Numbered from the stretch's first letter, positions 24,402 to 58,647 are shown. The stretch is DNA of 64,000 bases from Candidatus Dormiibacterota bacterium (GCA_963709585.1 CAVPXI010000013.1:32001-96000), one strand, 5' to 3'. Translations and numbers: made by a program. Notes: generated from the letters alone by a model not told the origin.

Positions 24402-24520
24402 TCGGGGAGACAGGACTCGAACCTGCGACCCCTGGTCCCCCAGACTAGTACTCATTTCCCGATGAGTGCTGAGTTCGATTTAGAGTGGTTTTGTGGGGAA
24501 TTGGTTGGAATGACGACTAG
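24402..24520 (-). repeat. att-like repeat copy 1: tRNA-Pro(GGG) 3' half plus conserved 72-bp segment
   Basis: Minus strand CTAGT-CTGGGGG-ACCAG-GGGTC-GCAGG-TTCGAGT-CCTGT-CTCCCCGA (anticodon arm, T-arm, acceptor 3' strand); no D-arm or 5' acceptor strand. Confidence 0.88.
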
Positions 24521-24668
24521 AGCGCGTGTGATGGAATCCGCTGGAATCGCCGAGAATCCCTCAGCGCTCTTCGACAGAGACCATCGCCTATCCCCTTGAG
24601 CCTCCAGCCTTTCCCAGGACGGATCACCGCTTAGCAAACGTGTCAGTCAAACCGGGGCACGCCCCCTG

Positions 24669-24739
24669 GCCCTGACCACCTTCCACCCGCCCTCATGCAA
24701 CCAGTGATGACGGTGGCAGAGGAGTACCAGGTTAGCCAG
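24669..24739 (-). pseudogene. C-terminal remnant of an HNH endonuclease (DUF222/13E12-like)
   Basis: Translates LANLVLLCHRHHWLHEGGWKVVR; similar DNA at 34751-34825. Confidence 0.7.
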
Positions 24740-24960
24740 CATCGCCCTCATACGCCGTAGATGGCGATGTGCTTCGCCTGCATAACACCAACCAACAACT
24801 CTCCCGCTCTCAGGTCGAGGATGCGGCGAGAAGGAAGGGCATCGCCAGCCCGTTCGATCTCCGCAACCTCAGGGGAAGCTCATAGTTGTCGCTTGCACTC
24901 TGCCAGCTGCTCGAAGCTGGGTTCGCGTTTGCACTGTCCCGAATGCTCTGAGCGGGGGGG

Positions 24961-25629
24961 TCACGACAGACGGCGTTCCGTGGCCCAGCGCGTGAGCTGA
25001 TGCCGCGTCGAGAGCTGGAGCTTGCGCAGCACCGACGAGACGTGGCTCTCCACCGTCTTCGCGGAGATGAACAGCTCCCGGGCGATTTCCTTGTACGTGA
25101 AACCGCGCGCGATGAGACGGAGAACCTCGCGTTCGCGGGGTGTCAGCTGGTCGAGCTCGGAGTCGAACGACGGTCGCTCCTGATCGGCGGCGGGCAATGC
25201 CGCGAAGGCGTCGAGCACGAAACCGGCGAGCCGCGGCGAGAAGACCGCCTCACCATCGGCCACCCGGTACACCGCATCGACGAGGTCGGCGCCGGAAATC
25301 GTCTTGGTCACGTAGCCGCGCGCGCCGGCGCGGATGATGGCGATCACATCCTCAGGCGCGTCCGACGCGGAGAGCGCGAGGAAACGGACCTGCGGGTTGG
25401 AGGCCTTCAGTGCGGTCACCACGGCGTGCCCGCCGCCCCCTGGGAGATGCACGTCGAGCACGACCACGTCAGGTTCGCTCTGCGCGATCGCTGTGATAGC
25501 CGGTTCAACGTCGTCCGCCTCGCCGATCACCTCCACCTGGTCGCCGAGCTCGGCGCGTACGCCCGATCGGAACAGGCCGTGGTCGTCGACGATGAAGACA
25601 CGGGGCCGGCGGCCACGCGAGACGCTCAC
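24961..25629 (-). CDS. LuxR-family response regulator (PspC-associated)
   Basis: VDDHGLFRSGVRAEL, DVHLP, HTH GFTYKEIARELFISAKTVESHVS. Confidence 0.93.
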   Translation of the reverse strand: MSVSRGRRPRVFIVDDHGLFRSGVRAELGDQVEVIGEADDVEPAITAIAQSEPDVVVLDVHLPGGGGHAVVTALKASNPQVRFLALSASDAPEDVIAIIRAGARGYVTKTISGADLVDAVYRVADGEAVFSPRLAGFVLDAFAALPAADQERPSFDSELDQLTPREREVLRLIARGFTYKEIARELFISAKTVESHVSSVLRKLQLSTRHQLTRWATERRLS

Positions 25630-26885
25630 GCAGGCGCCGGCTGGCTCACCGCGGCTGAGCGGGGCATCGATAAGCGGACCTCGGTGCCCTCGCCGGGAGC
25701 GCTCCGAACCTCAGCGCTGCCGCCACGGCGGAGCATCCTGGCGTGGACAGACTCGGACAAGCCCTTGCGGTCCGCGGAGACTGCGGCTGGATCGAACCCT
25801 CGGCCGCGGTCGCGGATGAACACAGACACCTGGCCCGCCTCCACCTCGGCGTAGAGCGAGATGGCCCGCGCCTCGGACCACTTCGCCGCGTTGACCGTCG
25901 CCTCGCGAGCGGCGGCGAGCAGCGCCTTGAGGTCGTCATCGAGCGGGCAGTCCCCGACGCTCACCACTTCGACGGCGACCCCGTGTTGAGCCTCGACGTC
26001 GCTCTGGATCAGGCGCACACCGGCAGCGAACGTGGTGTCAGAGGCGATCGATCCGGGCGCGCGCCCGTCGAAGAGCCAGGAGCGCAATTCGCGCTCCTGG
26101 GCACGCGCAAGCTGGATCACCTGTTGGGGTTCGGTGGCCCGGCGCTGGATCAGCGCGAGTGTCTGGAGCACCGAGTCGTGGGCGCGCGACGCCATGTCAG
26201 CGCGTTCCTCGGCGCGGATACGGGCCTGACGCTCGGCGACGAGCTCACGCCCGACGCGCAACCACCATGGTCCCAGGACGACCACGATCGCGGCGATGAC
26301 CAATGCCACGCCGGCGAGCGGACGGAGCAGTGCCGTCGTCGTGTGCCCGATCAGCAACGTGGTCACGCCGGCAATCAGCAGGACAGCCGCAATCAGCGCG
26401 CGGAGCGCGATTCGCGAGCGGCGCGTGTCACCGGTAAAGCCGATCAAGGGATCGGCAAGACGCCGCAAGGTCATCTGCTCGTAGGCGGGAGCGTTTCTCG
26501 AGATCAGGACAATCGCGATGACGCTGATCACGAATGACCAGGCGAGCGAGCCGATCCACCCGGCGCCGACCAGCGACAACAGCACGAAGAGCGCCGTGAC
26601 CAGCGATGCGAGCCCCGCGGCGAGGGTGATCCCGGTGCGGTCGGCCAGCGCCGCGCTGCCGATGCTAGTCCGCTCCCCTATCGCCGGAATGAGCAGCCAG
26701 GCCGCCAGATAGCAGGCGATCCCGAAGCCTCCGGCCAACGCGAGGACCACGAAGACCGTCCGCACGATCGTGACATCGACTCCGATCCTCGCCGAGACGC
26801 CGGCAGCGACGCCACCGAGACGGCGCTGTTCGGGGAGGCGACGCCAGGAGCCTTTCCGTCGCTTGGCCTGGGTCTGCTCCGCCAT
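25626..26885 (-). CDS. PspC-domain sensor histidine kinase
   Basis: N-terminal PspC (RRLGGVAAG), TMs, H-box AHDSVLQTL, RDRGRGF. Confidence 0.9.
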   Translation of the reverse strand: MAEQTQAKRRKGSWRRLPEQRRLGGVAAGVSARIGVDVTIVRTVFVVLALAGGFGIACYLAAWLLIPAIGERTSIGSAALADRTGITLAAGLASLVTALFVLLSLVGAGWIGSLAWSFVISVIAIVLISRNAPAYEQMTLRRLADPLIGFTGDTRRSRIALRALIAAVLLIAGVTTLLIGHTTTALLRPLAGVALVIAAIVVVLGPWWLRVGRELVAERQARIRAEERADMASRAHDSVLQTLALIQRRATEPQQVIQLARAQERELRSWLFDGRAPGSIASDTTFAAGVRLIQSDVEAQHGVAVEVVSVGDCPLDDDLKALLAAAREATVNAAKWSEARAISLYAEVEAGQVSVFIRDRGRGFDPAAVSADRKGLSESVHARMLRRGGSAEVRSAPGEGTEVRLSMPRSAAVSQPAPA

Positions 26886-26920
26886 GTCCCCATCATGGGC
26901 CTCGCCAGCCTACGGGACCA

Positions 26921-26970
26921 TCGGGGAAGACCCTGAAGCGCTGACGGGCGTCTCAGGGTTGAATCCGGGA
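26921..26970. promoter_or_regulatory. putative response-regulator binding sites between kinase and pspC
   Basis: Imperfect palindrome TCGGGGAAGACCCTGA and TCAGGG..TCCGGGA in the divergent intergenic region. Confidence 0.4.
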
Positions 26971-27014
26971 TCCCACGGATTGTTCTGTAGCACCGGCGGC
27001 TCTACGGTGGGGTC

Positions 27015-27275
27015 ATGAACACACCCACCTCGACCCAGCGCCACCTCCACCGCCCCACCGACGATCGGATGATCGCGGGCGTCGCCGCCGGCATTGCCGA
27101 GTACTTCGATGTTGATGTCACGATCGTCCGGATCGCGATCGCGGTCTTCTCGGTGTTCGGCGGCGCGGGCATCGCTCTGTACATCGCCGGCTGGCTGCTG
27201 ATGCCGACTGAGGGCTCGGATCGGTCCATCGCGAACAAGCTCACCCGGACAGCCCGGCACTGCACGCAGTCATGA
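27015..27275 (+). CDS. PspC domain-containing protein
   Basis: LHRPTDDRMIAGVAAGIAEYFDVDVTIVR...LYIAGWLLMP. Confidence 0.9.
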   Translation: MNTPTSTQRHLHRPTDDRMIAGVAAGIAEYFDVDVTIVRIAIAVFSVFGGAGIALYIAGWLLMPTEGSDRSIANKLTRTARHCTQS

Positions 27276-27402
27276 GCGCGTGATCCCACCACCGGTGACC
27301 CTATCCCCACTGCGGCTCCTACCCTGACTTGTGGAACTGCTGGACCCCGCTCAGCGCTGCCCGACGATGGTGATCCTCGCGAGAACGCAAATTGCACGTC
27401 CG

Positions 27403-27521
27403 TCGGGGAGACAGGACTCGAACCTGCGACCCCTGGTCCCCCAGACTAGTACTCATTTCCCGATGAGTGCTGAGTTCGATTTAGATTGCTTTTGTCGGGA
27501 ATTGGTTGGAATGACGACTAG
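27403..27521 (-). repeat. att-like repeat copy 2: tRNA-Pro(GGG) 3' half plus conserved segment
   Basis: Near-identical to 24402-24520, offset 3001 bp. Confidence 0.88.
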
Positions 27522-27849
27522 CGCGCATATTGGAATCAAGTGGAATCGCATCGACATCCGGAGGGGCTGGCCGCCGTAGCCCGTGGCTCCACTTCCCGGC
27601 CACCTCGCGACTTTGGGCATTCTGGTCGCCGTGGTAACGATCCGAGCCCTGAGCAACTGTTCCCCACATCATGGTGGTCCGTCTCATCGGGTCAAGCCCG
27701 GCGGATAGGCGCCCGACACTATCCGTCACGCTGGCTTAGCGCGCCAGCCTCGACCCGCAGCTCGCATCGCTACGGGGCGATTGCGCTCCCAATGGTCGAC
27801 TGACCCGGCCTATGTGGACGGTGTGGGCAGTCGCCCCAGCGGTGACCTC

Positions 27850-28742
27850 CTAATGTCCGCTGGCCGGGCTGTTCTTCCGCGCGACCTCTGTTCTGGCGGA
27901 GTGCCAGAGCGTGCGGCCGTTGGCCCAAGCGGGATACAGCTCGACCATGCGAGCGACGATGCTGGCCACGGTGGTCTCGTCTGCCGCGATTCGGGAGAAG
28001 TCCCGCAGATATTGCTGGGATTCCCCGATGATCTTCGGGTCGTTGGTGTTCTCGACTTTCTTGTGGCCGGCGACGACGATGTGCGGTTCGAGCGCGGCGA
28101 CCCTGTCTAGGTTGGAGATCCACTCAGCACGCTCGGGTTCACCGGCCTCGGCGGTCATCATGTGGACCTCGTTGTAGGCCAGATCCCCGGTGACGACAGC
28201 GGCGACCGACGGAACATGGAGCACGGTGGAGTCGGCGGTATCGGCTCGACCGATCCGGATGACCCGCAGCTCGTTGCCCTCCAGGTCGATCGTGTCCGTG
28301 GTCAACGGTTGGGGCAACACCTTCTTCGTTCCGATCGGCACCTCGCCGGGGAAGATGGCCTCCCAGTACCCGGCGATGCCAGGGTTTGCCGACTGAGCGA
28401 CAACTTCAGCCGTCGCAAGGCCTACTGCTCCCGGAAAGCGCTGGGTCGGTCGCGCCAGACCGAGCCAGTGGTCGCCATGGCCGCGGGCAATGTAGATGCG
28501 CGACAGCTTCCGCCCCTTCGTGTCGATCCAGTCCGCCAGAGCGTCGACCTGCCCATAGGTGGCCAGCGCGTCGACGAGGATCGCGTCGCGGTCGCCGTAG
28601 TCAGCGTCGCTGAAGACGGGGACCAAGTCGGCTCATCACCCGGCCCTTGGGGCGCGATTGCGCTCACAAACGTTCGGCCCGGGGCCGTGTACACCTCAAT
28701 CCTGAGTTGCGTTGGGACGTGCTCAGCAGCCACAGATGCCAT
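27850..28742 (-). CDS. MBL-fold metallo-hydrolase (frameshift near 28601; first metal motif degenerate)
   Basis: WSPSSATL/YGDRDAILVD, IYIARGHGDHWLG, VTGDLAYN, VVAGH. Confidence 0.82.
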
Positions 28743-28874
28743 GGTTTCCGCCTCTCAAAACGGGCTCGAAACGGGCTCGATTGAAGAGGACGGTCGTCAT
28801 CCTCACGTCGAAGGAGGATGACGGATACAATCTTCTTTTGTCAAGCAACGACGGGAGCGGTTGGAGGATTCAGC

Positions 28875-29453
28875 GTGGGGACGTCTCAAGCAGCGAAGGC
28901 TGCGAGCCATGACCGCATCCTCGACATCGCCGCGGCGCGGATCCGCCGCGATGGCGTGGACAACCTGTCGGTCGACGAGCTCATGAAGGAAGCGGGGCTC
29001 ACCCACGGGGGCTTCTACCGTCACTTTGAGTCACGCGACCAACTCGTCGCCGAGGCAGCGCAGCGAGCTCTCACGCAGGGGAGCGCCTGGACCATCGCTG
29101 CCGCTCGACGCGGCGGACGGCGTGCATACGTCTCGCTCGTCGACGGTTATCTGAGCGTGCAGCATCGAGATCATCCTGAGGACGGCTGCGGCCTGGCCGG
29201 CGTCGCCGCAGACGTGGCGCGTGCGGGAGGCCCGGCGCGCGCGAGCTACACCCGCCAAGTCGAGATCTGCCTCGACGCCCTCGCTAACCTCCTCGATACC
29301 CCCGACCGCCAGGTCGATGAACGCGAAGCCGTCCTCACCCTCAGTGTCCTGGTCGGCGCCATCTCCATGGCTCGGGCCGTCGACGACCCCGACCTGTCCC
29401 AACAGATACTGACCCACGCCGCAGCCGCGTTGAAAGAACGAACCCCAAACTAG
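28875..29453 (+). CDS. TetR-family transcriptional regulator
   Basis: SVDELMKEAGLTHGGFYRHFESRD; GGAGG RBS; divergent from the MBL gene. Confidence 0.92.
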   Translation: MGTSQAAKAASHDRILDIAAARIRRDGVDNLSVDELMKEAGLTHGGFYRHFESRDQLVAEAAQRALTQGSAWTIAAARRGGRRAYVSLVDGYLSVQHRDHPEDGCGLAGVAADVARAGGPARASYTRQVEICLDALANLLDTPDRQVDEREAVLTLSVLVGAISMARAVDDPDLSQQILTHAAAALKERTPN

Positions 29454-29471
29454 GGGACTTGGTGCTCGATT

Positions 29472-29875
29472 GATGCTTCTCTTGTTTGTCAAGCCGCTGC
29501 GGCGAGTGCGGCTCGAGGTATGAGCTCGCGATACATCTCGCGAGCGACGTAGCGCTTGAGGCACCGGATGATCTCCGGTTTGGACATGCCCACCTGGGTG
29601 CGCCGAGCCGTGTAGTTCCTCGTCGGCGCATCGGCGGCGAAGCGCACGATGACGACACGCCAGAGTGCGCAGTTGGCGTACCGATCGCCGCCACGGTTGA
29701 GCCGATGGCGACCGGTGGACTTGCCGGACGACGCCAGCAGCGGGGCCCCGCCACAAAGATTCGCAAACGCACCCTCTGGTCGAAGTCGCTCCGGGTTGTC
29801 GCCCTGCGGCTACGAGTACGGCACCAGCGACGTCGGTGCCGACACCCTTGAGCGCGCAGAGTGTCGGTGCAGCCT
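29472..29875 (-). mobile_element. IS110-family transposase C-terminal remnant with right end
   Basis: GVGTDVAG..GDNPERLR.EGAFANLCG.APLLASSGKS.GRHRLNRGGDRYAN.AL...CLKRYVARE*, followed by TTGACAAACAAGAGAAGCATC; N-terminal DEDD domain absent. Confidence 0.85.
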
Positions 29876-29901
29876 CCCAATCGAGCGCAGAACCCTACGC
29901 G

Positions 29902-30225
29902 TCAGGTCAGTGGCCACACCTCGATAACACCGTGTGCGACCGCACAAGGGCTATTGGCGGCAAGGCTGATCGCCTCCTCGACCGTGGCGGCCTCGATAAC
30001 CCCGAACCCGGCGATCGGTAAGTCCGACCGCATAAACGGTCCCTCGCTTGTCTCTACGCCCGCCCCGTCGTGGTTGCGCACCTGCACCGGCTGCCCCGCG
30101 ATACCCATCAACGCTCCTGCCGCGACTAGGCGCATGTCGTGTTGATGGGCCGCATCGCGGATTGCGGGGTCAGTCTGGTCGTAGCCTGCCCGACCTCCAT
30201 ATCCGATAGTCACGAATCTCGGCAC
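29902..30225 (-). CDS. YciI-family protein
   Basis: EGPFMRSDLPIAGFGVIEAATVEEAI..PCAVAHGVIEVWP; GAGGAGG RBS. Confidence 0.85.
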   Translation of the reverse strand: MPRFVTIGYGGRAGYDQTDPAIRDAAHQHDMRLVAAGALMGIAGQPVQVRNHDGAGVETSEGPFMRSDLPIAGFGVIEAATVEEAISLAANSPCAVAHGVIEVWPLT

Positions 30226-30510
30226 GTACCGTACCTCCTCACTTCATTTGGCGCAGTATGCGCCGGATCACTGGGTCGGTCAGTTTGAGCAAAGTGGTGA
30301 ACCGGACTCGAACCGCTTTCCGTAAAGCGCTTCGCCTTCGCTCCCTTTGTTCGTCACAGCCGTTTTCCCGAACTCTTCTCCTTCATGTTGGGGTAACTGC
30401 TGTGTGCTCGACCGACTTAACGTGTGCGTCAACGCAGGCGAGGTCCACAATCCCGCAGAGGAGAATCAGATGCTCCACCTAGCCCCACATCATCATGGTG
30501 CTGAGGAAGA

Positions 30511-30924
30511 GTGAAGACCCTGCACACGGCGCTCCGCGTCACCAACCTGCCTGCCTCGGTCCGGTTCTATACAACGCTCGGGTACAGCGAAGTTGGCCGC
30601 GTCGACAGCGGTGACGGTGAAACGCTAACCCTCCTTAGGTTTCCGGCGGAGGAGGTCGCGACACTCGAGCTTGTCCACCGGGCTGCCGAGAACCCGGTAG
30701 AGATCGGTACCGGGTTCCACCACCTCGTCGTGCAGGTAGACGACCTCGGCGCCACCGTCGACGTGCTTTCGCGCGCGGGCATGGAAACCGGGCCGATGGA
30801 GCGTCCCGGGGGCCCGGACGGCCCACGGACGTCATGGCTGACGGACCCCGACGGGTATCGGATCGAACTTGTGCAATGGCCGCCTGGACATCCCAGCGGG
30901 ATTACCGTTGCCGACTTCCCTTAA
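30511..30924 (+). CDS. VOC/glyoxalase family protein
   Basis: LHTALRV..SVRFY, GFHHLVVQVDD, TDPDGYRIELV. Confidence 0.92.
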   Translation: MKTLHTALRVTNLPASVRFYTTLGYSEVGRVDSGDGETLTLLRFPAEEVATLELVHRAAENPVEIGTGFHHLVVQVDDLGATVDVLSRAGMETGPMERPGGPDGPRTSWLTDPDGYRIELVQWPPGHPSGITVADFP

Positions 30925-31368
30925 GGGGCCTGGCCGGCGGCAAAAGGCGCGTGAGAGCTGGCGGAGTCCCTGTCTTAATTCCGTTCCAGTTGGGCGGATG
31001 CGCCTTTCTGGGTGCTGCGCACCGCGGAGCCGACGCGTTGCGGCTTGGTTGAGGGCAAGCCAATGATCGCTGTCGCCGAATCCCTTCCGTGACGGTCACG
31101 GTTGGTATCCGGCCTCCTCCGTCGTCAACTCCAGCTTGCTGGGCGAGATCGGAGGCCGATCGCTCAACAGGTGTCGGATTCGGGTCGAACGAGGCGCCCG
31201 ATCGATCCGGTTCGCTGTCGAAGGACCCGAAGCGAACGGCGTCGGCCACGCTCGAACCGGCAACAATCGGGATGAGCCCTGAGCGCAGCGCTGCGCTCGA
31301 TCGTCACGTCAACGAACTCATCACCAACACGGTCCTGAGCGTCGCGGGCCGCGACACTCGGGCTACCC

Positions 31369-33103
31369 ATGGGAAGGCGCCCCTTTCGTCTGCTCGTCGC
31401 GGCGGTGGTCATTGTGGGAGGCGTCAACGGCGTGATGCTCGTCGTGGCACCGGTACTGCGACAGACGATCGTGGTCGACGACTTCTCCGAGACCCTGTCG
31501 GCACTCCTGGCGGCGACCGCCTGCCTCATCACCGCGGCTCGAGGCCGGGGTCGCACCAGGCAGGCTTGGGGGCTGATCGGCGTCGCTGCAGGCTTGTGGG
31601 GTCTCGGCCAGGCGGCCTGGACCTACCAGGAAGTCTTTCTCCACCTGGCCCCAGCGACCCTCTTTCCCTCGTTTCCGGATCTGGGCTACCTGCTCTCGGT
31701 ACCGTTCGCGATCGCCGGCCTGCTCCGTCTCCCCGGAGCCGCCACCACCAACGAGGCGCGGATGCGTACGGTGCTCGATGGCGTGTTGATCGCCGGCGGA
31801 TTGCTATTCATCAGCTGGGACGTTGTGCTCGGACCCGTGTACGCGTCGTCCTCAACAGACACCTTTGCGCAGATCGTCGGTCTCGCCTACCCGATCAGCG
31901 ATATCGCGATGGTGACCATCGTGGTGCTCACGCTGTCGCGCCTGCATGCCGGACAGCGACTGCCGCTCGTCCTGCTTGCGTTTGGCGTCCTGCTCAATGC
32001 TGTGGCCGACAGCTCGTTCGCCTTCCTCACGACCCTCCAGAGCTACACGTCGGTGAACTTCCCCGATCTCGGCTGGACGATGGGCTATGCGCTCATCGGC
32101 CTCGCCGCGGTGGGCGCGCTGAGTACCTCAGCACATACCGGGGACGAGGCCATCCGGCAACCGCGGTGGACTCTGATGCTGCCGTATCTCACCGTCGCCG
32201 CCGCCGGCATCGCAGCCGTAGTGACCGAGTTCATCGCCGGGTCGCTCAACCGGGTGCTGGAATGGGATCTCATCCTCACCATCACCGTTGTGCTCGCAAG
32301 GCAGTATCTATACGCCCGTGAGACCCGCTCATTGAACGAACAGGTCGCGCGCAAGAACGAGGACCTTGATCTGAAGGTTGACGAGCGCACCCGGGCGCTC
32401 GTCGAGAGCCTCGAGGACCTCCACCGCTCCAACGATGAACGCACCAAGCTCCTCCTCCGGCTTGTGACCGTTCAGGAGCAGGAGCGGCAGCACATGGCCG
32501 GCATCATCCACGACGACATGCTGCAGTCGATGATCGCTGCGAAGATGCGAATGTTCCTGTTACACGGGAACGACGGGGTCGAGGACGCGACCGCTGCGTC
32601 GATCGAAGTCTTCTATCGAGGGAGCAATCGTGCGCATGCGCACGATGCTGAGCGATCTCCATCCGCACATCCTCGAACTCGGCCTGCGTGCGGCGGTAGA
32701 ACAGTCGATCTCAGAGTTCAACGACGACGAGAACCTTGTGGTGGTTCTCACGAATGAGCTCACTGGGGATCCATCCCCGATCGTGGCCACAACGCTGTAC
32801 CGCATCATCCGCGAGGCGCTCACGAATGCAAGCAAGCACGCGCGCGGCGCGTCCGTCACGGTGTTCCTGAACGGTGATCAGGGCAGCGGCTTCGGTGCAC
32901 GCATCAGCGACAACGGCCCTGGATTCGCGCCTCGAACCGACAAGAGGTCCCCGCAGGGTCACCTCGGGCTAAGCTCCATGCATGAGCGTGCGGAGGCGCT
33001 TGGCGGGTGGGTACACCTCGACAGCGCCGAAGGAGCAGGCACTGCCATTGAGGTATGGCTGCCTCAGAAGCTGAAGTCCGTCGTTGAGATGCCTGCGGCA
33101 TGA
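31369..33103 (+). CDS. multi-TM sensor histidine kinase (frameshift near 32612)
   Basis: About 10 TMs, H-box QEQERQHMAGIIHDDMLQ; ATPase REALTNASKH, SDNGPGF, GHLGLSSM in the next frame. Confidence 0.85.
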
Positions 33104-33166
33104 CGTTTTCGTGACGAGTCGGCCCCCGGCGGTGTAAGGCGGCGCCGGCGTCCAGAGTGAGCGGCA

Positions 33167-33562
33167 ATGAACGGCACGCGACTTCGTGTGATCATCGTGG
33201 ACGACAGCGGGGAAGTGCTCTCAGCTCTCGGACGGATCATCGACAAGCAGGTTGATCTCGAGCTGATCGGGGTTGCGTCCAGCGTCGATGACGGCGTCCT
33301 TTTGGTGCGTCAGCTGCAGCCGGACGTGGTCGTCCTTGACGTCAACATGCCCGACGGCGGCGGCCTCAGAGCCGCAAAGGAGATGGTTGTCGTGGCGCCT
33401 GCCGCCCGCCTGATCGCCTTCTCCGCGTTCGACAAGACGCTAATTCGTAGGGCGATGACTGTCGCCGGCGTTTCCGCATACATATCCAAGTCGGGTGACA
33501 TCCGCGAACTTCTCGACGCAATCCGCGTCGGGCGGGATGTCGACGCGTTCACACCCCGCTGA
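33167..33562 (+). CDS. stand-alone response regulator receiver protein
   Basis: IIVDD, DVVVLDVNMP, AYISK; no output domain. Confidence 0.88.
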   Translation: MNGTRLRVIIVDDSGEVLSALGRIIDKQVDLELIGVASSVDDGVLLVRQLQPDVVVLDVNMPDGGGLRAAKEMVVVAPAARLIAFSAFDKTLIRRAMTVAGVSAYISKSGDIRELLDAIRVGRDVDAFTPR

Positions 33563-33597
33563 GGGCGCGCATCCAGTCGCCACGGTCGGTGCCTGAT

Positions 33598-33622
33598 GGC
33601 GACAGGACTCGAACCTGCGACC
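33598..33622 (-). repeat. short tRNA T-arm fragment matching the att-like repeat core
   Basis: GACAGGACTCGAACCTGCGACC identical to the core of the four repeats. Confidence 0.6.
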
Positions 33623-33929
33623 GTTGATGAGCAGCCCCCGGTGTCATAGAGACTGCGGTCACTTAGTCCCAACGACCGACAGCTGAGAGTCGAGGCGGCC
33701 AGCGCCGCCGAGATGTCAGTCTGCGTCGTTGCCGAGGGCCCCAGCCGTGGAGCTGTCCCGGTCCATCGTGCTGACAGACGTATCCAGCCTCTAGAACGGT
33801 TCGAGCATCCCGCGGACGCTGCCGATCTCGTGTTGAACCGCGACCAAGTCGATCTCTTCGCGGGCTACGTTGGCGATTGCTCCAGCGCCCGTCACACTGG
33901 CCAGATAGAGCGCACAGATGACCGCGGTC

Positions 33930-34126
33930 CAAAACTGTAAGCGCTATGTAGGCGCTTGACTGCCACAATCTCTTGCTATGAGCAGCGGCATCCAGCCTCA
34001 ACCATCGGGATTGATGCCTTTTGCAGGAAAAGTGATCATTCCTGGTTAGAGCACTACACGACGTGGGCGCGCAGGCGCCCAAACAAACTGCGCAACCTCT
34101 CGTTGCGAACTCAAGTCGGACGTCCG
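33930..34126 (+). repeat. extended flank shared by att-like copies 3 and 4
   Basis: CAAAACTGTAAGCGCTATGTA...GACTGCCACAATCTCTTGCTATGAGCAGCGGCATCC...TTTTGCAGGAAAAGT..TCATTCCTGGTTAGAGCACTACAC recurs at 58333-58528. Confidence 0.85.
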
Positions 34127-34245
34127 TCGGGGAGACAGGACTCGAACCTGCGACCCCTGGTCCCCCAGACTAGTCCTCACTTCCTTGATAATGCTGAGTT
34201 CGATTTAGAGTGCTTTCGTCGGGAAATGGTTGGAATGACGACTAG
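34127..34245 (-). repeat. att-like repeat copy 3: tRNA-Pro(GGG) 3' half plus conserved segment
   Basis: tRNA part identical to the other copies; non-tRNA part more diverged. Confidence 0.88.
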
Positions 34246-34429
34246 AGCGCCTAATGGAATCCGTTGGACTAGCGTCGACATCCACAGAGGTTTATTGAGC
34301 GTACCCCATCTCCCCTCTTCCCCGATTGTTCTTGTACCTCGAACTGGGCCGCATCGTAACGGGGCCACCAAGGGCGCATGGGATGACCATCTGCGGCTCC
34401 GTTTATTCGATTCGACCCTCCCCGGCTCC

Positions 34430-41261: not shown

Positions 41262-43592
41262 GTGGCCAGTCGCGGCCCCCGGTTGCCGAACCTGCAAACG
41301 CTGCAGTTACTCGTTGCCGTGACAGGGTTAACCGTGGGCGCGGTTCTGCGCATTGTCGGCGCGGTCGCGCCATCGAACCTTCTCTGGGGTGCCACAGCGG
41401 CGGTCGCCCTGCTGCCAACAACGATCTCTGTTGCGCGTGACCTGCTGCGTCATCGCGCCGGGGTCGACGTCGTCGCGGTGCTGGCTCTGGGTGGCACCCT
41501 CGGTGTCGGTGAGTACCTCGCCGGCGCCGTCATCGCATTCATGCTCGCCACCGGCCGCGAGCTCGAGGCGAGGGCATCTGCACGGGCTCGTCGAGAGCTG
41601 TCCGCCCTCCTCGCGCGAGCACCGACCGTGGTGCACCGCGTTGAAGGCGACACGCTCATCACCCAGGCGATCGACACCGTCCGAACTGGCGATCTGCTCA
41701 TCGTTGCGCCCGGTGAGGTGGTTCCAGTCGATGGCCTGCTGGCAAGTGATATCGCCACCTTCGACGAATCGGCGCTCACCGGTGAAACGGCGCTGGTGGA
41801 ACGCGTGATGAGCGATCCGGTTCGGAGTGGTGGTGTCAATGCGGGTGGCGCGTTTCGTCTCCGCAGTACCGCCACCGCTGATGAGAGCACGTACGCCGGC
41901 ATCGTGCGGCTGGTGCGTCAGGCGCAGGAGTCGCGCGCACCGTTGGTGCGCGTTGCCGACCGGTTTGCCCTGTGGTTCGTGCCTCTGACCATCGCGCTCG
42001 CCGGACTGTCAGGAATCCTCGCTCGCGACCCCGTGCGCGCAGTTGCCGTGTTGGTGGTGGCCACGCCATGCCCGCTCATCCTCGCCGCGCCGATTGCGCT
42101 GGTTGGGGGCATGTCGCGAGCTGCGCGTCGGGGCATCGTGGTCAAGGGCGGCGCGGCGCTCGAAACGCTCGGACGTGCGAATGTCCTGCTCTTCGACAAG
42201 ACGGGCACGCTCACCGAAGGTCGAGCGCGAGTCGCCGACATCGAGACCGACGGCAGCATCAGCGCGGATGAGGTGTTGCAACTCGCCGCGTCGCTGGATC
42301 AGATGTCGACCCACGTACTTGCCCGGCCGATCGTCCAGGCAGCTCGCATCAGGGGCCTTCACCTCGCCCTTCCCGACGACGTACACGAGGACCCCGGCAG
42401 AGGCGTCTGCGGAGGCGTGGCCGGACGGAGCGTGACAATCGGTCGCGCCTCGTATGTCGCGGACGGCAGCGTAGTGCCGGCTTGGGCCGCGCGCGTGCGC
42501 AGACGCACTGCCTACGAGGGCCTCGCCAACGTGTTCGTGGGCGTCGACGGGATTCTGGTCGGCGCGATGGTGCTCGAGGACCCGCTCCGCCCCGACAGCG
42601 GCCGTGCCGTCGCACGTCTCCGGCGGGCCGGGATGCGCCGTATGGTGATGGTCACCGGGGACCATCCGGACGTGGCCCAGGCCGTCGCGTCGGCAATCGG
42701 CGTCGATGCGGTCTATGCCGAGCGCAGCCCAGCCGAGAAGGTCGACGTCGTGCGTGAGGAGCGCCAGCGAGGCGTCGTCGTGATGGTTGGCGACGGCATC
42801 AATGACGCCCCGGCGCTGGCCGCTGCTGACGTCGGTGTCGCCATGGGAGTTCGGGGGGCCACGGCGTCATCCGAAGCCGCAGACGTGGTGCTCATGGTCG
42901 ACCGCATCGATCAACTCGCCGAAGCGGTCCAGATTGCCCGCCGCTCCCACCACATCGCATTGCAGAGCATCGCCGTCGGTATGGGACTCTCGCTCGTCGC
43001 CATGGGCATTGCTGCAACCGGCGGGCTCGTGCCCGTTGTCGGCGCCGTCGTGCAGGAAGCGATCGATGTCGCTGTGATTCTCAACGCACTGCGCGCCCGC
43101 GGTGGCCGGGAGGAGCCGCGACCTTCCGAAGTGGCGCTGAGTGCCGGACGTCAGGTGCTTCTCGAGCACGCGGCGATGGAATGCGAGACAGCGCAGCTCA
43201 GAAGTCTCGCCGATGAGCTCGGGCACCTTCCGAGGGCCGCTGCCCGCATCCGCCTTGAAGAGGTGAAACGATTTCTGCGCGACGACCTTCTGCCGCACGA
43301 GCAGGAGGAAGAGCAGCATCTGTACCCGGTGGTCTCCCGTTACATCGGGGGCCCGGAGAGCGTGGCGGTGGCGCGCCGCGAGCACGCCGAGGTGGCACAT
43401 CTGTCGCGCGTGCTCAGCGGCATGATCGACGCACTGGATCCGGGCGGTCCCGATGACGAGGATCTGATCGGACTGCGCCGCGTTCTGTATAGCCTGTCGG
43501 CGGTCCTGAGCCTGCACCGGTCCGGGGAGGAGGAACGTCTCATCGCCGTGGTTGGCGAGCACGACGAAACGCCGATTCGCAGAACAGGATGA
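41262..43592 (+). CDS. P1B-5-type heavy-metal P-type ATPase with C-terminal hemerythrin domain
   Basis: TGE, TPCP, DKTGT, TGD, GDGIND and QEAID motifs; C-terminal EH...HEQEEE..LYP...EH...HRSGEE. Confidence 0.9.
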   Translation: MASRGPRLPNLQTLQLLVAVTGLTVGAVLRIVGAVAPSNLLWGATAAVALLPTTISVARDLLRHRAGVDVVAVLALGGTLGVGEYLAGAVIAFMLATGRELEARASARARRELSALLARAPTVVHRVEGDTLITQAIDTVRTGDLLIVAPGEVVPVDGLLASDIATFDESALTGETALVERVMSDPVRSGGVNAGGAFRLRSTATADESTYAGIVRLVRQAQESRAPLVRVADRFALWFVPLTIALAGLSGILARDPVRAVAVLVVATPCPLILAAPIALVGGMSRAARRGIVVKGGAALETLGRANVLLFDKTGTLTEGRARVADIETDGSISADEVLQLAASLDQMSTHVLARPIVQAARIRGLHLALPDDVHEDPGRGVCGGVAGRSVTIGRASYVADGSVVPAWAARVRRRTAYEGLANVFVGVDGILVGAMVLEDPLRPDSGRAVARLRRAGMRRMVMVTGDHPDVAQAVASAIGVDAVYAERSPAEKVDVVREERQRGVVVMVGDGINDAPALAAADVGVAMGVRGATASSEAADVVLMVDRIDQLAEAVQIARRSHHIALQSIAVGMGLSLVAMGIAATGGLVPVVGAVVQEAIDVAVILNALRARGGREEPRPSEVALSAGRQVLLEHAAMECETAQLRSLADELGHLPRAAARIRLEEVKRFLRDDLLPHEQEEEQHLYPVVSRYIGGPESVAVARREHAEVAHLSRVLSGMIDALDPGGPDDEDLIGLRRVLYSLSAVLSLHRSGEEERLIAVVGEHDETPIRRTG

Positions 43593-53506: not shown

Positions 53507-53508
53507 CC

Positions 53509-54830: not shown

Positions 54831-55123
54831 GTCGGCTGCGATGGCCTCCGGGATACGGGTGGCAGCGTACAGGTACCGGTCCGCGCCGCGGACGGCGGCT
54901 CAAGCTGCCACTGGTGATGTTCGTTCTCATCCTCGCGCCGCCCGGGGCGGCAGACAAAGGGCGCCGCTCCGCACCTGCGCACGCTCAACCAGCGCGATGG
55001 CGTGACGCATATGGTCAACCGATTCTCCGTCGGCAGGTGCGCCTGTGACAAACGCCTCTGTCGCCGCCGCAACGGAGCTTTCAACATGCTGACATGAAAC
55101 CTATAACCGTCAGGAGTAGTGCC

Positions 55124-55405: not shown

Positions 55406-55917
55406 GCATCCTCATTGCATATGCGAGTAAGCATGGCGCCACAGCTGGAATCGCCGAGCGCATCGGCGCAGCCCTGCATCTGCGCGGTCTGGAGGCATGC
55501 GTCATGTCCATTTCGGAGGTGCCGGATCTTCGGCACTATGACGCAGCCATCATCGGCAGCGCGGTCTATATGGGACGCTGGATGAAGGAGGCATCGTCGT
55601 TCGTTCGCCAACATCAAGCGGAGCTCGTGCGCGCACCGCTGTGGGTGTTCAGCAGCGGGCCTGTGGGGCCCAAGTCCTTACCCGAGGCCGCCGACCTCGC
55701 GGAGTTTCGCACTCTGCTCAACGTCATGGACGATGCCACATTTGATGGCGCCATCGACGCACAGAAGCTGTCGCTTTCGGAGCGGCTGATGGTCAAAGCG
55801 GTGCGAGCCCCATATGGCGACTACCGCAAGTGGGATCGCATCGACGAATGGGCCGGCTCGATAGCCACCTCTCTCGGCGCCTCCGCCATGCAGCACGGCG
55901 TTCAAATGGCCCGATGA
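55402..55917 (+). CDS. flavodoxin-domain protein (HemG-like)
   Basis: ILIAYASKHGATAGIAE, IGSAVYMGRW, FSSGP, GDYRKW. Confidence 0.9.
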   Translation: MSILIAYASKHGATAGIAERIGAALHLRGLEACVMSISEVPDLRHYDAAIIGSAVYMGRWMKEASSFVRQHQAELVRAPLWVFSSGPVGPKSLPEAADLAEFRTLLNVMDDATFDGAIDAQKLSLSERLMVKAVRAPYGDYRKWDRIDEWAGSIATSLGASAMQHGVQMAR

Positions 55918-55921
55918 GCCC

Positions 55922-55936
55922 ATGACTTTCGACCCT
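55922..55936. promoter_or_regulatory. DosR/DevR-like binding box
   Basis: ATGACTTTCGACCCT upstream of the DUF4389 gene. Confidence 0.55.
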
Positions 55937-56000
55937 GGCAGACGGCCGCGCTGAAGATCCACTCTCTGAGGTAGAACCTCGAGAACCAGGGAGAGCGGCC

Positions 56001-57536
56001 ATGAGTGCCCAACCATATGGAGCGACGACCAAATCTGCAGGCGGCTCGCGCGCCGGCGGTATCGCGCTTGTCATCCTCGGCAGCATCGTCGCGTTGATTG
56101 CACTCGGCCTGCTCGCCGGCGGCGGAGTGTTGATGTGGGCAGACCGAACGCAGCGTGATACTGCCGGCTACTTGACGTCTCCGAGCACCCGTCTCACGAC
56201 CGCCTCATACGCGATTGCGGCAACCGATCTCAACGTCGCCACCGATGCGCCTGGATTGCATGTCCCCAACGGGGCGCTCGGCTCGGTGCGCGTAGTGGCA
56301 ACCGCGGGCACAGCGAGCCCACTGTTCATCGGTATCGCGCCCAGCGCTGATGTGCAGCGATACCTCGACGGGGTCGCATATGACCAGCTTCAGGGATTCA
56401 TGGGGACGTCGGGAGGACCCGACTACCTGCCGCACAGTGGCGGTGCCCCTGCGTCGCCGGCTTCCCAGACCTTCTGGAAGGCGCATGTCTCCGGCAGCGG
56501 CACGCAGTCACTGACGTGGAACCCCGCAAACGGCCATTGGGCGGTCGTGCTCATGAATGCGGACGGCTCGCAGACTGTCGCCGCCGATGTGTCTGTTGGA
56601 GCAACTGCGCCATTCCTCTTCGCGCTCGCGCTTGGGGTGTTGATTGGCGGCGGCGTTGCTTTGCTGGTGGCTATCGCCCTCCTCTTCGGAGGCAGCGCCA
56701 TGTTGCGCTCTCGGGAACGGGGTCAGTCGAAAACCTGGTTGGCGCCACCCCCGTCTGCGCCAATCCCTCCGTCACCCTCCTTTGGCGCGGCGCTCCCGCC
56801 ACCGCTTGCTCCGACGGGCGTGAGCTACCCACTCCGCATCGAGGGACACCTTGATTCGACCCCAAGTCGGTGGCTCTGGTTGGTGAAGTGGATCCTCCTC
56901 ATCCCGCACTACGTCGTCCTTGCGTTTCTCTTCATGGCGGCGCTCGTGCTCACCGTGATCGCATTCTTCACGATCCTTTTCACCGGGCGGTATCCGCGTT
57001 CGATCTTCGATTTCAACGTTGGCGTTCTCCGCTGGTGGTGGCGGGTCAGCTTCTACGGCTACAGCGCACTCGGCACGGATCGCTATCCGCCGTTCACCCT
57101 CAATTCAGCAGCGGAGTATCCGGCGACCCTGGAGATTTCCTACCCAGAACGGCTGTCTCGAGGGCTCGTGCTGGTCAAGTGGTGGCTCCTCGCCATCCCG
57201 CACTATCTCGTTGTGGCGGTGCTGGTCGGTGGCACCGCGCTCGCCGTGCACGGAGCGTCGACATACTCCGCGCCGTACACGGGGCTGATCACGATATTCG
57301 TGTTTGTCGCTGCCATAGCCGTGCTGTTCACCGGGCGCTACCCACGCGGCATCTTCGACCTCGTCATGGGGCTGAACCTGTGGGTCTTCCGCGTCCTTGC
57401 ATACGTGCTTCTGCTTCGGGACGAGTACCCGCCGTTCCGGCTCGATCTGGGTGGTGATGAAACACCCGGCGCTCCTAGTGTGGAAGCACCGATGCCACCG
57501 AGCCCCTTCCGCCAACCGCACCGGCAGGGCATTTGA
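56001..57536 (+). CDS. DUF4389 domain membrane protein
   Basis: Two repeats of SR.L.LVKW.L.IPHY...FTGRYP...YPPF. Confidence 0.9.
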   Translation: MSAQPYGATTKSAGGSRAGGIALVILGSIVALIALGLLAGGGVLMWADRTQRDTAGYLTSPSTRLTTASYAIAATDLNVATDAPGLHVPNGALGSVRVVATAGTASPLFIGIAPSADVQRYLDGVAYDQLQGFMGTSGGPDYLPHSGGAPASPASQTFWKAHVSGSGTQSLTWNPANGHWAVVLMNADGSQTVAADVSVGATAPFLFALALGVLIGGGVALLVAIALLFGGSAMLRSRERGQSKTWLAPPPSAPIPPSPSFGAALPPPLAPTGVSYPLRIEGHLDSTPSRWLWLVKWILLIPHYVVLAFLFMAALVLTVIAFFTILFTGRYPRSIFDFNVGVLRWWWRVSFYGYSALGTDRYPPFTLNSAAEYPATLEISYPERLSRGLVLVKWWLLAIPHYLVVAVLVGGTALAVHGASTYSAPYTGLITIFVFVAAIAVLFTGRYPRGIFDLVMGLNLWVFRVLAYVLLLRDEYPPFRLDLGGDETPGAPSVEAPMPPSPFRQPHRQGI

Positions 57537-57557
57537 AGACACTGGGATCCAGACACG

Positions 57558-58145
57558 ATGCGAGGCCAAGTGAACACAGCGGCATGCGCCGACGCCACCG
57601 TTGATCTGTACTGGCTCCCTCTCGGCGCCGGCGGCCACTTCGTACGCTGGAATAGACGTGTTTATGAAGCGCTGATCGCACTCCGTGAGCGACGGCGGCC
57701 GCAGGATCTCTACCACTCGGCCCTGGTGGCCACGGTGGCGCAGAGCCGCTTCGTGATCGAGATGACGCCGGTCCGCGACGCCAACAGCGCTGAGCGCGGC
57801 GTGGTCGCGGAGGGGCTGTCGGCTCGCGACTGGCCGGACGGCTCCGCGTGTTTCGCTACGAGCTCCGCCCTTGGAATAATGGAGTCATCCCTGACGTCGA
57901 CGAGGCAGTCGAGAGTCCGGTGCATCTCAGCGGCGATTCGCGAGATGCCCGCCGAATCCTCGAGCTCGTGCCTGAGGTGCCGACGCTTGTGTGGGGTCGC
58001 GACGAGCTTCGCGCTGGTGAGATGTGGAACTCGAATTCGGTCGTTTCGTGGCTTCTCGTTCGCGCGGGTCTCGACAGCGACTTGATCCCGACCGCCGGCG
58101 GGAGGGCGCGCGCCTGGCTGGAAGGCCGGCCTGATTGCTGCGTAA
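57558..58145 (+). CDS. conserved hypothetical protein (frameshifts near 57815 and 58105)
   Basis: VDLYWLPLGAGGHFVR..LYHSAL / FRYELR..WGRDEL.AGEMWNSNSVVSWLL / PGWKAGLIAA* across three frames. Confidence 0.7.
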
Positions 58146-58332
58146 CGCCCGCTGCTCAAGCGGACATCGCTCAGAACCAGGTCCGTGCGATGGCGCTCAG
58201 CCCTTGCGGACGAGCGGAGTGGAGGGGGTCCGGCTGTGCCAAGCATCAGGCGGACGCGCCGCGCACCGTCAAGCATCTCTTGGACCCGCGGTGGCCAAGT
58301 ATCTGCCGGGCTCTTACACGGTCGATGGCCGT

Positions 58333-58528
58333 CAAAACTGTAAGCGCTATGTATGCGCTGGACTGCCACAATCTCTTGCTATGAGCAGCGGCATCCGGCC
58401 TCAACTGTGGGGAATGATGCCTTTTGCAGGAAAAGTCATCATTCCTGGTTAGAGCACTACACCCCGTTAGCCGGCAGGCCCCCAACGCACCGCGCAACCA
58501 CTCGTTGCGAACTCAAATTGCGCGTCCG
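58333..58528 (+). repeat. extended flank shared by att-like copies 3 and 4
   Basis: Homologous to 33930-34126. Confidence 0.85.
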
Positions 58529-58647
58529 TCGGGGAGACAGGACTCGAACCTGCGACCCCTGGTCCCCCAGACTAGTCCTCATTTCCCGATGCGTGCTGAG
58601 TTCGATTTAGAGTGGTTTTGTGGGGAATTGGTTGGAATGACGACTAG
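58529..58647 (-). repeat. att-like repeat copy 4: tRNA-Pro(GGG) 3' half plus conserved segment
   Basis: Near-identical to 24402-24520. Confidence 0.88.

Follow-up and report, generated by a model that had tools for sequence, protein, structure and literature searches.

The four repeats that subdivide a 64,000-nt stretch of contig C13 (the window) in G000, the 3.52-Mb assembly of Candidatus Dormibacterota under study, are probably complete attP-type sites of the tyrosine integrase of an ICE, and the region around them is probably an additive island built by serial accretion of integrase-less, CIME-like modules. Candidatus Dormibacterota are uncultured bacteria of soil and permafrost, and a search of the literature on their genomic islands and integrases returned nothing relevant. 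The genome holds 20 full copies of the site, all co-oriented (16 on C13 and 4 on contig C14), and each run of copies terminates at an intact tRNA-Pro(GGG) gene beside der, outside the window.

The first-pass annotation had placed the repeats at 24402, 27403, 34127 and 58529, at spacings of 3001, 6724 and 24402 bp, and in intergenic positions; both observations were confirmed, as all four copies lie between called genes. On the minus strand, each carries the 3' part of tRNA-Pro(GGG), identical at 51 of 52 positions to both intact tRNA-Pro(GGG) genes of the genome, and the single difference, an A in the window copies versus a G in the tRNA, bears out the A-C mismatch that had been described. A four-way alignment of the window copies likewise agrees with the earlier description, with no variation in the tRNA-derived block or in most of the segment next to it, against drifting flanks, and BLAST E-values of 1e-19 to 1e-57 for the copies within the genome are far beyond chance. 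ARAGORN found no tRNA in the window, and Rfam at gathering score gave no match there; the absence of an intact tRNA is thus true of the window, but not of the sequence beyond it, where intact genes lie at C13:211509-211583 and C14:71628-71703. The proposed 119-bp unit was too short, since the conserved unit spans ~300-350 nt and includes a P' arm, and the array of four, although correctly described as co-oriented, is only part of the set of 20. A pair of GACTAG repeats 72 bp apart was rejected as a hallmark: it occurs in each window copy, yet only 11 of the 45 family sites examined have it, so that it is incidental. The window is divided as follows, with coordinates counted from its first nucleotide and cargo assigned by Pfam scan:

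1 to 24263, unstranded: distal part of a 41.2-kb module (C13:15220 to 56402), with a NiFe-hydrogenase-like gene, malic enzyme, Usp genes, a two-component system, an ABC-2 transporter, a GAF-kinase-GNAT-CoA-ligase fusion, and MFS and AraC genes
24264 to 24556, minus strand: att site 1, with P' arm ~24264-24401, core 24402-24453 and P arm 24454-24556 (extent from the self-comparison of C13, C13:56264-56556)
24557 to 27382, unstranded: 3.0-kb module, with a PspC-domain histidine kinase, a LuxR-type response regulator and a small PspC protein; its matches elsewhere, in five relatives, are only 70-83% identical
27383 to 27566, minus strand: att site 2, with core 27403-27454 and P arm to ~27549-27566; P'-arm limit not placed
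27567 to 33929, unstranded: 6.7-kb module, with TetR, glyoxalase/VOC, a response regulator, a 462-aa protein without a Pfam match, and a 22-nt T-arm relic at 33601-33622
33930 to 34287, minus strand: att site 3, with P' arm 33930-34126 (~197 nt), core 34127-34178 and P arm to ~34287
34288 to 58327, unstranded: 24.4-kb module, with a DsrE-like protein, a pyridine-nucleotide disulphide oxidoreductase, two P-type ATPases (one fused to hemerythrin), an HtrA-like protease, ApbE, a ferric-reductase-like protein, an ECF-type sigma factor and a DUF4389 protein
58328 to 58687, minus strand: att site 4, with P' arm 58328-58528, core 58529-58580 and P arm to ~58687
58688 to 64000, unstranded: start of a 20.7-kb module (C13:90529 to 111201), with a MIP channel, zwf, gnd and a ROK-family protein

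Each copy is an attP-like site composed of a P' arm, a core formed by the tRNA 3' part, and a P arm. The mean pairwise identity of 45 aligned sites from four genomes falls from 0.93 in the 52-nt core to 0.74 across the P arm and 0.44 across the P' arm, and is 0.29 in the far flank; the 3' 43 nt of the core are nearly invariant, and the core matches the tRNA at 51-52 of 52 nt in most copies. The P arm holds three conserved ATTCCA motifs, which rank among its most conserved columns, and the P' arm contains the inverted pair GGAATGATG / CATCATTCC; both are candidate integrase-binding arm motifs. Nine G000 sites, att site 3 among them, have in common a P'-arm boundary ~197 nt from the core, beyond which their cargo is unrelated. 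The A/G difference in the anticodon stem was considered as a marker of the crossover side and was rejected, as internal sites carry either base.

All 20 copies share their strand with both intact tRNA-Pro(GGG) genes and follow them downstream as direct repeats, as expected of att sites, and elsewhere in the assembly only four short, weak partial matches (25-39 nt) occur. The closed genome of a relative, G049, has 12 copies, all on one strand and downstream of the tRNA within 2.177-2.331 Mb, and another relative, G077, has 11, so that the array of G000 is the largest seen. On C13 the additive low-GC island extends over at least 200 kb (GC 0.645 in the array versus 0.694 in the adjoining core), while on C14 about 54 kb separate the tRNA from the last site. 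The P arm was identified in 34 of the 42 genomes of the genus; the family-level tally of sites (94 of 101 genomes) mostly reflects the tRNA part and includes four genomes flagged as unpublished (G002, G026, G054 and G092), on which no specific claim depends.

The modules between the sites have the properties of CIMEs, being flanked by att sites and devoid of integration and transfer genes. They carry solely metabolic, regulatory and stress genes, reach 41 kb, have cargo genes on both strands and in many cases contain regulator genes; a toxin-antitoxin pair abuts some of the sites. The 236 predicted proteins of the G000 arrays (C13 and C14:1-76 kb) comprise one IS110 transposase and no integrase, relaxase or secretion gene, nor any other recombinase or replication gene, although the home-made GC3-based caller left gaps, so that a small mobility gene could be missed. 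The absence of an integrase noted for the window extends to the whole of C13, on which neither PF00589 nor PF00239 has a match, and PF00589 is also absent from C14:1-80 kb. Indeed, no integrase able to act on the sites was found in G000, the best tblastn match being 29% identical and located beside another tRNA.

Such an integrase exists in close relatives, to which the integrase search was confined. A PF00589 integrase of 332 aa is located immediately downstream of the intact tRNA in G096 and, in G049, immediately downstream of an internal site; at an identity of at least 87% it is found in 8 of 42 genus genomes (these two and six more), mostly adjoining the tRNA; with this query, 27 of the 34 P-arm carriers have none. 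An intact tRNA-Pro(GGG) gene is just upstream in seven of the nine full-length integrase loci and a partial tRNA was detected in one more, while a tenth locus is a remnant only. Beside the integrase are a TrwC relaxase (980 aa), ParA, RadC and ArdC. The element of G096 also has SSB, ParB, VirB4-like and VirB11-like ATPases and a coupling protein. Within its attL and attR, as also at locus L063, an integrase is thus combined with a relaxase, a coupling protein and ATPases of type IV secretion, as expected of an ICE, and the far end of the G096 element carries a P arm 94-95% identical to that of the window. None of these ICE genes is present in the window or on C13. Between hosts, identity amounts to 78-84% in the core flank, 95-98% in the stretch from tRNA to integrase and 92-97.5% in the ICE backbone.

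The content and order of the modules differ between species, with breakpoints at the sites. Together with an array in G000 that is free of integrase and integrase remnants and a cognate integrase in relatives, this fits one of the two readings offered in the first-pass annotation, in which an integrase acting in trans serves a cassette-like array, even if the likeness to an integron that it drew is only loose. Three modules are kept from site to site between species at 92-96% identity, and modules so kept are as small as 1.1-2 kb. For G000 and G077, the only such pair with a measured core flank, that flank is 82% identical and neighbouring modules have no mutual match among the matches listed, while G077 and G083 differ by one extra site-bounded module between common neighbours. 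In G089 and G100, the MFS-AraC module reaches 95-96% identity, as against 84% for the flank, and the G089 match stops at an att site (P-arm end); large parts of the 24.4-kb module are 87-92% identical to G049, where they occur in another order. Modules and sites hence differ less between species than the core genes beside them do, an indication of recent exchange.

Public sequencing data consisted of Logan contigs only (short metagenome contigs), and the best run contained 27% of the sampled words. Part of the 6.7-kb module (31181-33964) is ~98-99% identical in contigs of three of four sequencing runs, each from another study, and metagenome contigs break at 33930-33932, the P'-arm boundary of att site 3. 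Depth spikes were seen at three att bins. Contig joints that link att copies (one type "skips about 9.7 kb", another "goes back"), with short sides of 21-49 nt at 90% likeness, are explained by the repeat itself or by the arrays of other organisms, and so speak neither for nor against circles or deletions. In these contigs no junction of a circle or of an empty site was seen.

In the accretion model that we prefer, the integrase, encoded by an ICE with a TrwC relaxase and type IV secretion genes, would target the 3' end of the tRNA-Pro(GGG) gene beside der in one genus of Candidatus Dormibacterota. Successive site-specific integrations, at the tRNA gene or at existing array sites, would have stacked cargo modules in series, such that P arm, core and P' arm came together at every junction, in the orientation of the tRNA. 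The CIME-like modules, without integrase or transfer genes of their own, would rely on integrase supplied in trans by an incoming ICE, which could cut out as a circle whatever lies between two sites, put it back, or move it by accretion and conjugation. Action of the ICE integrase on these sites, formation of circles, conjugative transfer, continued function of the sites and present-day mobility of the modules are thus predictions of the model. As no cognate integrase was found in the G000 assembly, the array would be at rest there. The P' arms have diverged, with only ~50 nt resembling the P' arm of the present ICE at 73-80% identity, and recognition of the array sites by today's integrase is therefore not assured.

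The same structures could be the debris of many complete ICE or IME integrations, from which integrase and transfer genes were later deleted, leaving non-functional sites and immobile modules. Decay of this sort is the textbook route to CIMEs in the account of PMC5704250, the integrase is missing from most array-bearing genomes, and G096 has a single 90-kb ICE with ordinary attL and attR. Moreover, N-terminal integrase remnants lie beside a few sites in relatives, one in G049 (~2324380-2324579) and two in G077 (C9:144131-144229 and C2:866-964), so that at least some modules began as integrase-bearing elements that later decayed. However, integrase and backbone remnants are absent from all 20 G000 sites, a search of the G000 arrays with the ICE ORFs yielding just three weak, unrelated matches. 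The first-pass annotation had named classical tandem islands, with an intact tRNA and an integrase outside the window and remnants in each module, as the case that would contradict it; the intact tRNA is there, but neither the integrase nor the remnants are found in G000. The conservation of core and arm motifs, which far exceeds that of their surroundings, the P'-arm boundary common to nine sites with unrelated cargo, the small modules kept from site to site and the signs of recent exchange also argue against dead scars, which we consider unlikely. A different concern is a partial binning artefact, in which C13 would derive from another, related organism and inflate both size and copy number. 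C13 ends in a second, identical tRNA and a der fragment that is 86-87% identical to the der gene of C14, and could accordingly be the island of a co-binned relative rather than part of the same chromosome; in addition, ~33.5 kb of C13 has diverged counterparts on C14 (66-97% identity). Against this, the distal flank C13:1-11700 occurs once only in the assembly and the C14 array runs off the contig start without a distal flank, so that the two contigs fit end to end, and this unique flank and the single full der gene suggest that they may join. Estimated contamination is 1.19%, and arrays of comparable kind exist in G049, a closed genome, and in G077. An artefact is rather unlikely, and it would leave the nature of the sites unaffected.

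Two further explanations concern the kind of repeat. A non-autonomous, tRNA-derived repeat of MITE or SINE type, spread by transposition or retroposition, would also be short (~300-350 nt), partly tRNA-derived, intergenic and multi-copy, and the first-pass annotation had proposed a dispersed element of this sort. It was rejected because the copies, rather than being scattered in both orientations, form a single co-oriented run downstream of the tRNA gene, in the closed genome as well. The close match of the P arm to the attR arm of the ICE would be unexpected, and the ends of the 45 sites have no common terminal repeat, as judged from their alignment; this origin is extremely improbable. A true integron platform, with a resident integrase, attI and a common promoter expressing promoterless cassettes, would likewise present a co-oriented array of recombination sites that separate small gene sets, and toxin-antitoxin pairs abut sites in large chromosomal integrons, as they do some sites here. 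Yet there is no PF00589 gene on either array, the window copies do not fold significantly as single-strand hairpins (z-scores between -0.1 and -1.7 in five folds, one of the plus strand and four of the minus strand), and the large modules, many of them with regulator genes, have cargo on both strands, unlike promoterless co-oriented cassettes. With none of IntI, attI, Pc or folding attC found, an integron in the strict sense is very unlikely.

Accretion at the tRNA gene has a bolder extension, which we advance tentatively: the array might be a cassette bank run by the ICE integrase and the tRNA site, in which functional attP-bounded modules are stockpiled, up to 7-8% of the genome, until an arriving ICE excises single modules as circles, rearranges them, takes them up by attP x attP recombination and conjugates them between species. 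Selection would then keep the complete attP sites functional, and an uncultured soil phylum would possess a duplex-DNA, conjugation-coupled equivalent of the super-integron. With or without this extension, the data suggest that site-bounded modules at a single tRNA gene may make up much of the flexible genome in one genus, with cargo that spans hydrogenase-like, redox, stress, transport and regulatory genes, and that the ICE is likely the engine of their exchange between species. The array represents an extreme, cleanly delimited case of island growth through accretion. With module limits set precisely by the sites, metagenomes can be used to follow how adaptive genes are gained, lost and transferred, and the integrase-site pair is open to direct testing.

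Among known systems, chromosomal integrons resemble the array in having a long, co-oriented series of recombination sites with small cargo units, which a single integrase could excise and reinsert. In contrast, the array described here lacks IntI, attI and Pc, its sites are armed, duplex attP-type sites rather than folded attC, its cargo lies on both strands with regulator genes in many modules, its modules extend to tens of kb, and the integrase seen in relatives travels on a conjugative element.

Closer parallels are provided by CIMEs, which are described as att-flanked, without integration and transfer genes, and in tandem with, and dependent on, an ICE that uses the same site (PMC5704250). 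The likeness lies in integrase-less, att-bounded modules that would rely on an ICE integrase. The examples of accretion and mobilisation given there include ICESt1/ICESt3 of Streptococcus thermophilus and Streptomyces pathogenicity islands, and the tandem cases that it names have two elements (PMC5704250), whereas here there are 20 sites with both arms at each junction, and the array persists in carrier genomes in which no integrase was found with the query used (27 of 34). In the Islander survey, tandems of three or more accounted for 4 of 3919 islands, in a count that required an integrase per member. The tycheposons of Prochlorococcus are reported to form tRNA-anchored islands with niche-adaptive cargo, in which elements lie side by side with partial tRNA copies between them, newcomers push older elements inward, and integrase fragments and extra partial tRNAs are scattered (10.1101/2020.12.28.424599). 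The tRNA anchoring and the adjacent elements split by partial tRNA copies are common to both systems, but tycheposons, as described in that source, are non-conjugative and each encode a tyrosine or large serine recombinase and, in many cases, a replication (primase/helicase) module, whereas the modules here have neither and their helper is an ICE with type IV secretion; the repeat given for tycheposons is a ~40-nt piece of tRNA, here a whole attP of ~300-350 nt. In Ca. Methylopumilus, 20-bp repeats of tRNA-Lys mark additive flexible genomic islands, which are likewise variable, adjacent to a tRNA, punctuated by tRNA 3'-end repeats and loaded with strain-specific metabolic and resistance cargo (PMC10872708). 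By the description given there (PMC10872708), the last 20 bp alone recur and no integrase or helper is tied to them, whereas arms, integrase and ICE are identified here. With CIME accretion, tycheposon-remodelled islands and additive islands with tRNA-end repeats already published, "undescribed system", the term used in the first-pass annotation, is too strong; the underlying principle is known, and it is the scale of the array and the complete attP at every junction that are unusual.

The four repeats reported by the first-pass annotation were recovered in the window at 24402, 27403, 34127 and 58529, with spacings of 3001, 6724 and 24402 bp, and each does end in the 3' part of tRNA-Pro(GGG) on the minus strand, comprising the anticodon-stem 3' strand, variable loop, T arm, acceptor strand and discriminator base. 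Of 52 positions, 51 are the same in the window copies and in two intact tRNA-Pro(GGG) genes, and the one that differs explains the A-C mismatch that had been noted. The absence of an intact tRNA was borne out within the window, where ARAGORN detected no tRNA gene and Rfam gave no match at gathering score, but not in the genome, where the two intact genes lie on C13, the contig that carries the window at 32001-96000, and on C14. The GACTAG pair 72 bp apart is present in all four window copies, but in only 11/45 sites of the family, and hence it is treated as incidental rather than as a hallmark. Window 33601-33622 reproduces 22 nt of the tRNA-Pro(GGG) T arm exactly, 533 nt ahead of site 34127 and immediately behind a response-regulator gene, and continues into an acceptor-like end that differs. 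This stretch agrees with none of the genome's other tRNA genes and may be left over from an older or a different site.

Alignment of 45 sites from four genomes divides each site into a P arm, a core and a P' arm, with mean pairwise identities of 0.74, 0.93 and 0.44, respectively, and 0.29 far from the site. The P arm extends over ~100 nt (with weaker similarity to ~150 nt) and contains three strongly conserved ATTCCA repeats, the core spans 52 nt and hardly varies over its 3' 43 nt, and the P' arm has a conserved inverted pair, GGAATGATG ... CATCATTCC, with TTTTCCTGCAAAAGG at its centre. One P' variant is common to nine sites of the genome and ends ~197 nt from the core, with unrelated cargo beyond, and a second, of ~140-160 nt, is common to four others. 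Since single-strand folding of the sites was not significant (z-scores of -0.1 to -1.7), every junction resembles a full duplex attP with P arm, core and P' arm, which is the expected product of tandem integration by elements sharing one attP.

The assembly under study (G000; 3.52 Mb, 24 contigs) holds 20 full site copies, 16 on C13 (11768 to 198798) and four on C14 (17964 to 56565), all on the same strand as the intact tRNA-Pro(GGG) closing each run. The other 22 contigs and the remaining 420 kb of C14 hold no copy; four weak partial matches of only 25-39 nt, on C7, C13 and C15, are the exception. Several blocks are duplicated inside the genome.

Intact tRNA genes and duplicated blocks of the genome
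C13:211509-211583, intact tRNA-Pro(GGG), closes the C13 run
C14:71628-71703, intact tRNA-Pro(GGG), closes the C14 run
C13:12459-14659 and C13:124230-126430, duplicated block, 97.7% identical
C13:193532-198848 and C14:66361-71679, duplicated block, 97% identical

The alignment of the last block terminates in the core, and identity between the der flanks of the two tRNAs is 87%. The C14 tRNA is followed by der and core genes, syntenic in five relatives, and the distal end of the C13 run (C13:6346-9017) is matched by DNA just past the last site of a relative's closed genome (G049). The GC content is 0.645 in island DNA vs 0.694 in the adjoining core, and that of C13 (0.646) is the lowest among all contigs. 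C13 stops 564 bp beyond its tRNA, within a der fragment. As the distal flank is present once and the full der gene is single, the simplest layout joins the start of C14 to the end of C13; alternatively, C13 may be the co-binned island of a relative. The der 3' end at the contig end (C13:211636-212147), beside the second, identical tRNA-Pro(GGG) and 86-87% identical to the full C14 der, would belong either to a tRNA-der piece imported from another species or to a co-binned contig.

A second, smaller tRNA-anchored island is suggested on C15 by partial repeats of the tRNA 3' end downstream of a tRNA-Pro(TGG) gene (C15:40658-40732).

Partial repeats of the tRNA-Pro(TGG) 3' end
C15:33423-33461
C15:35483-35521
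C15:40661-40699

The modules between the sites carry metabolic, regulatory, transport and stress-related genes, according to a Pfam scan of 236 predicted proteins from C13 and C14:1-76 kb, for which genes were called approximately, by a simple GC3-based script that leaves gaps. Metabolic and stress-related cargo includes a NiFe-hydrogenase-like protein, pyruvate:ferredoxin oxidoreductase subunits, malic enzyme, GAPDH, aldehyde dehydrogenases, zwf, gnd, peroxiredoxins, epoxide hydrolases and Usp proteins; regulators comprise two-component systems, ECF-type sigma factors and TetR, LuxR and AraC proteins, and transporters comprise P-type ATPases, MFS and ABC transporters and a MIP channel. Cargo genes occur on both strands, so the co-orientation of the sites is no by-product of gene orientation. 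Among the 236 proteins are one IS110 transposase and one ImmA/IrrE-like protein, and no integrase, relaxase, secretion or replication gene was found among them. The transposase (C13:147132-148391) and a 61-aa ORF are the only called genes of a 3.6-kb module outside the window (C13:145369-148956), between two of the most diverged sites. In the window, a 1234-aa protein at 8688-12389 (+), with two GAF domains, a HisKA_3/HATPase histidine kinase, a GNAT domain and an NDP-forming acyl-CoA-ligase-like region, is predicted to join, unusually, a sensor kinase to a Pat-like acetyltransferase, and the P-type ATPase at 41262-43589 (+), whose C terminus bears a hemerythrin domain, is followed by a second P-type ATPase. 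Window 31181-33964, encoding a 462-aa protein without Pfam match and a response regulator, is ~98-99% identical in metagenome contigs from three of four runs compared, each of a different study (peat, permafrost and soil), with neighbours far less covered. PIN/RHH pairs occur at two sites outside the window (C13:111394-112053 and C13:135004-135663; L049:16394-17053 and L051:4004-4663), where VapBC-like pairs, each a candidate antitoxin of RHH type (86 aa) with a PIN_3 protein of 132 aa, directly abut the P arm; homologous DNA lies beside site C14:17964 and beside sites in two relatives (G049, G077). Large integrons have toxin-antitoxin cassettes, which these pairs recall.

The reported lack of an integrase was confirmed for the whole array, as none of the 11 PF00589 matches in the genome lies on C13 or in C14:1-80 kb; PF00239 was found on C4 only. 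Eight of the PF00589 matches (on C4, C7, C8, C10, C14 and C20) lie within ~1.5 kb of other tRNA genes (Ser, Leu, Thr, Gln, Gly twice, Lys, Ala) and look like ordinary tRNA-integrase islands; the gene on C20 contains two TGA stops in frame. Two relatives carry a 332-aa PF00589 integrase, immediately downstream of the intact tRNA-Pro(GGG) in G096 and of an internal site in G049, and their proteins are 87% identical. A search of public genomes gave ten loci, nine full-length and one remnant, all in MAGs titled Candidatus Dormibacterota (Dormibacteraeota); an intact tRNA-Pro(GGG) lies just upstream in 7/9 full-length loci, and at one more the tRNA was detected only in part. Adjoining the integrase are genes for a 980-aa TrwC relaxase, ParA, RadC and ArdC, and the 90-kb element of G096 further encodes SSB, ParB, VirB4-like and VirB11-like ATPases, a TraG/TraD-type coupling protein, a type I restriction system and GmrSD. 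This element is an ICE, and the P arm at its end is 94-95% identical to that of the window. Between ICE hosts, the tRNA-to-integrase stretch (95-98%) and the ICE backbone (92-97.5%) exceed the core flank (78-84%) in identity, and therefore the ICE may be read as having spread recently between species. In one host, a CBASS-like defence set (SMODS, AAA ATPase, SAVED-domain protein; L065:12907-16523) lies beside the integrase. The integrase occurs at no less than 87% identity in 8/42 genomes of the genus and the tRNA-free P arm in 34/42, with most copies in G000 (20), followed by G043 (16), G049 (12) and G077 (11); this query found no integrase in 27 of the 34 carriers. Each handle denotes one representative genome per species; a family-level site tally, driven largely by the tRNA part, counts four unpublished genomes that support none of the claims made here.

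Cutting 12 genomes at their sites gave 63 modules of 1.1 to 90.7 kb (median 6.3 kb), and three pairs of these, each from two different species, are conserved from one site to the next.

Modules shared between species
G000 C14 52359>50391 and G077 C9 154923>152952, 95.4% identical
G065 C2 742216>739479 and G077 C9 172304>169558, 92.2% identical
G077 C9 144246>143119 and G083 C6 287160>288366, 96.4% identical

For the first pair, the neighbouring modules have no match among the matches listed, and the core flanks of the two genomes are only 82% identical. Module content and order vary among relatives, as the first-pass annotation had proposed to check: the upstream neighbours of the G077-G083 pair are partly shared, with one extra site-bounded module between them in G077, and segments shared with G049 are ordered differently there. 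The module left of window site 24402 has an MFS-AraC end that G089 and G100 share at 95-96% identity, vs 84% for the core flank, and in G089 the match stops at the site's P-arm end; the PspC module to the right has only 70-83% matches, located elsewhere in these genomes.

These data are consistent with an island that has grown at a single tRNA gene through successive site-specific integrations; its newest arrivals would lie next to the tRNA, where the ICE sits in most ICE-bearing genomes. The integrase-less, att-bounded modules match the definition of CIMEs (PMC5704250). Core and arm motifs are conserved, arm boundaries are uniform beside unrelated cargo, species have small modules in common from one site to the next, and module identity exceeds flank identity; we infer from this that functional sites have been retained and that, given integrase from an ICE, modules remain mobile. 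No circle or deletion junction was detected in the public data, which consisted solely of short contigs. That the array is instead inert debris of decayed elements is the main rival and appears unlikely, despite short integrase N-terminal remnants at one G049 site and two G077 sites, which favour it for some modules. A search with ICE ORFs found no integrase or other ICE remnant in the G000 arrays.

The principle is already known. Tandem accretion of CIMEs with ICEs is established (PMC5704250), and two further sources describe Prochlorococcus islands with partial tRNAs between elements and scattered integrase fragments and further partial tRNAs (10.1101/2020.12.28.424599), and an additive island with recurring 20-bp tRNA-Lys ends in Ca. 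Methylopumilus (PMC10872708). The Islander survey counted no more than 4/3919 islands as lying in tandems of at least three, on the condition that every member had an integrase, and a literature search on Dormibacterota genomic islands and a Dormibacter integrase found nothing relevant. What is unusual here is the copy number, the complete attP at every junction, the persistence of the array in 27/34 carrier genomes where the integrase was not found, and the identification, in relatives, of a conjugative helper.
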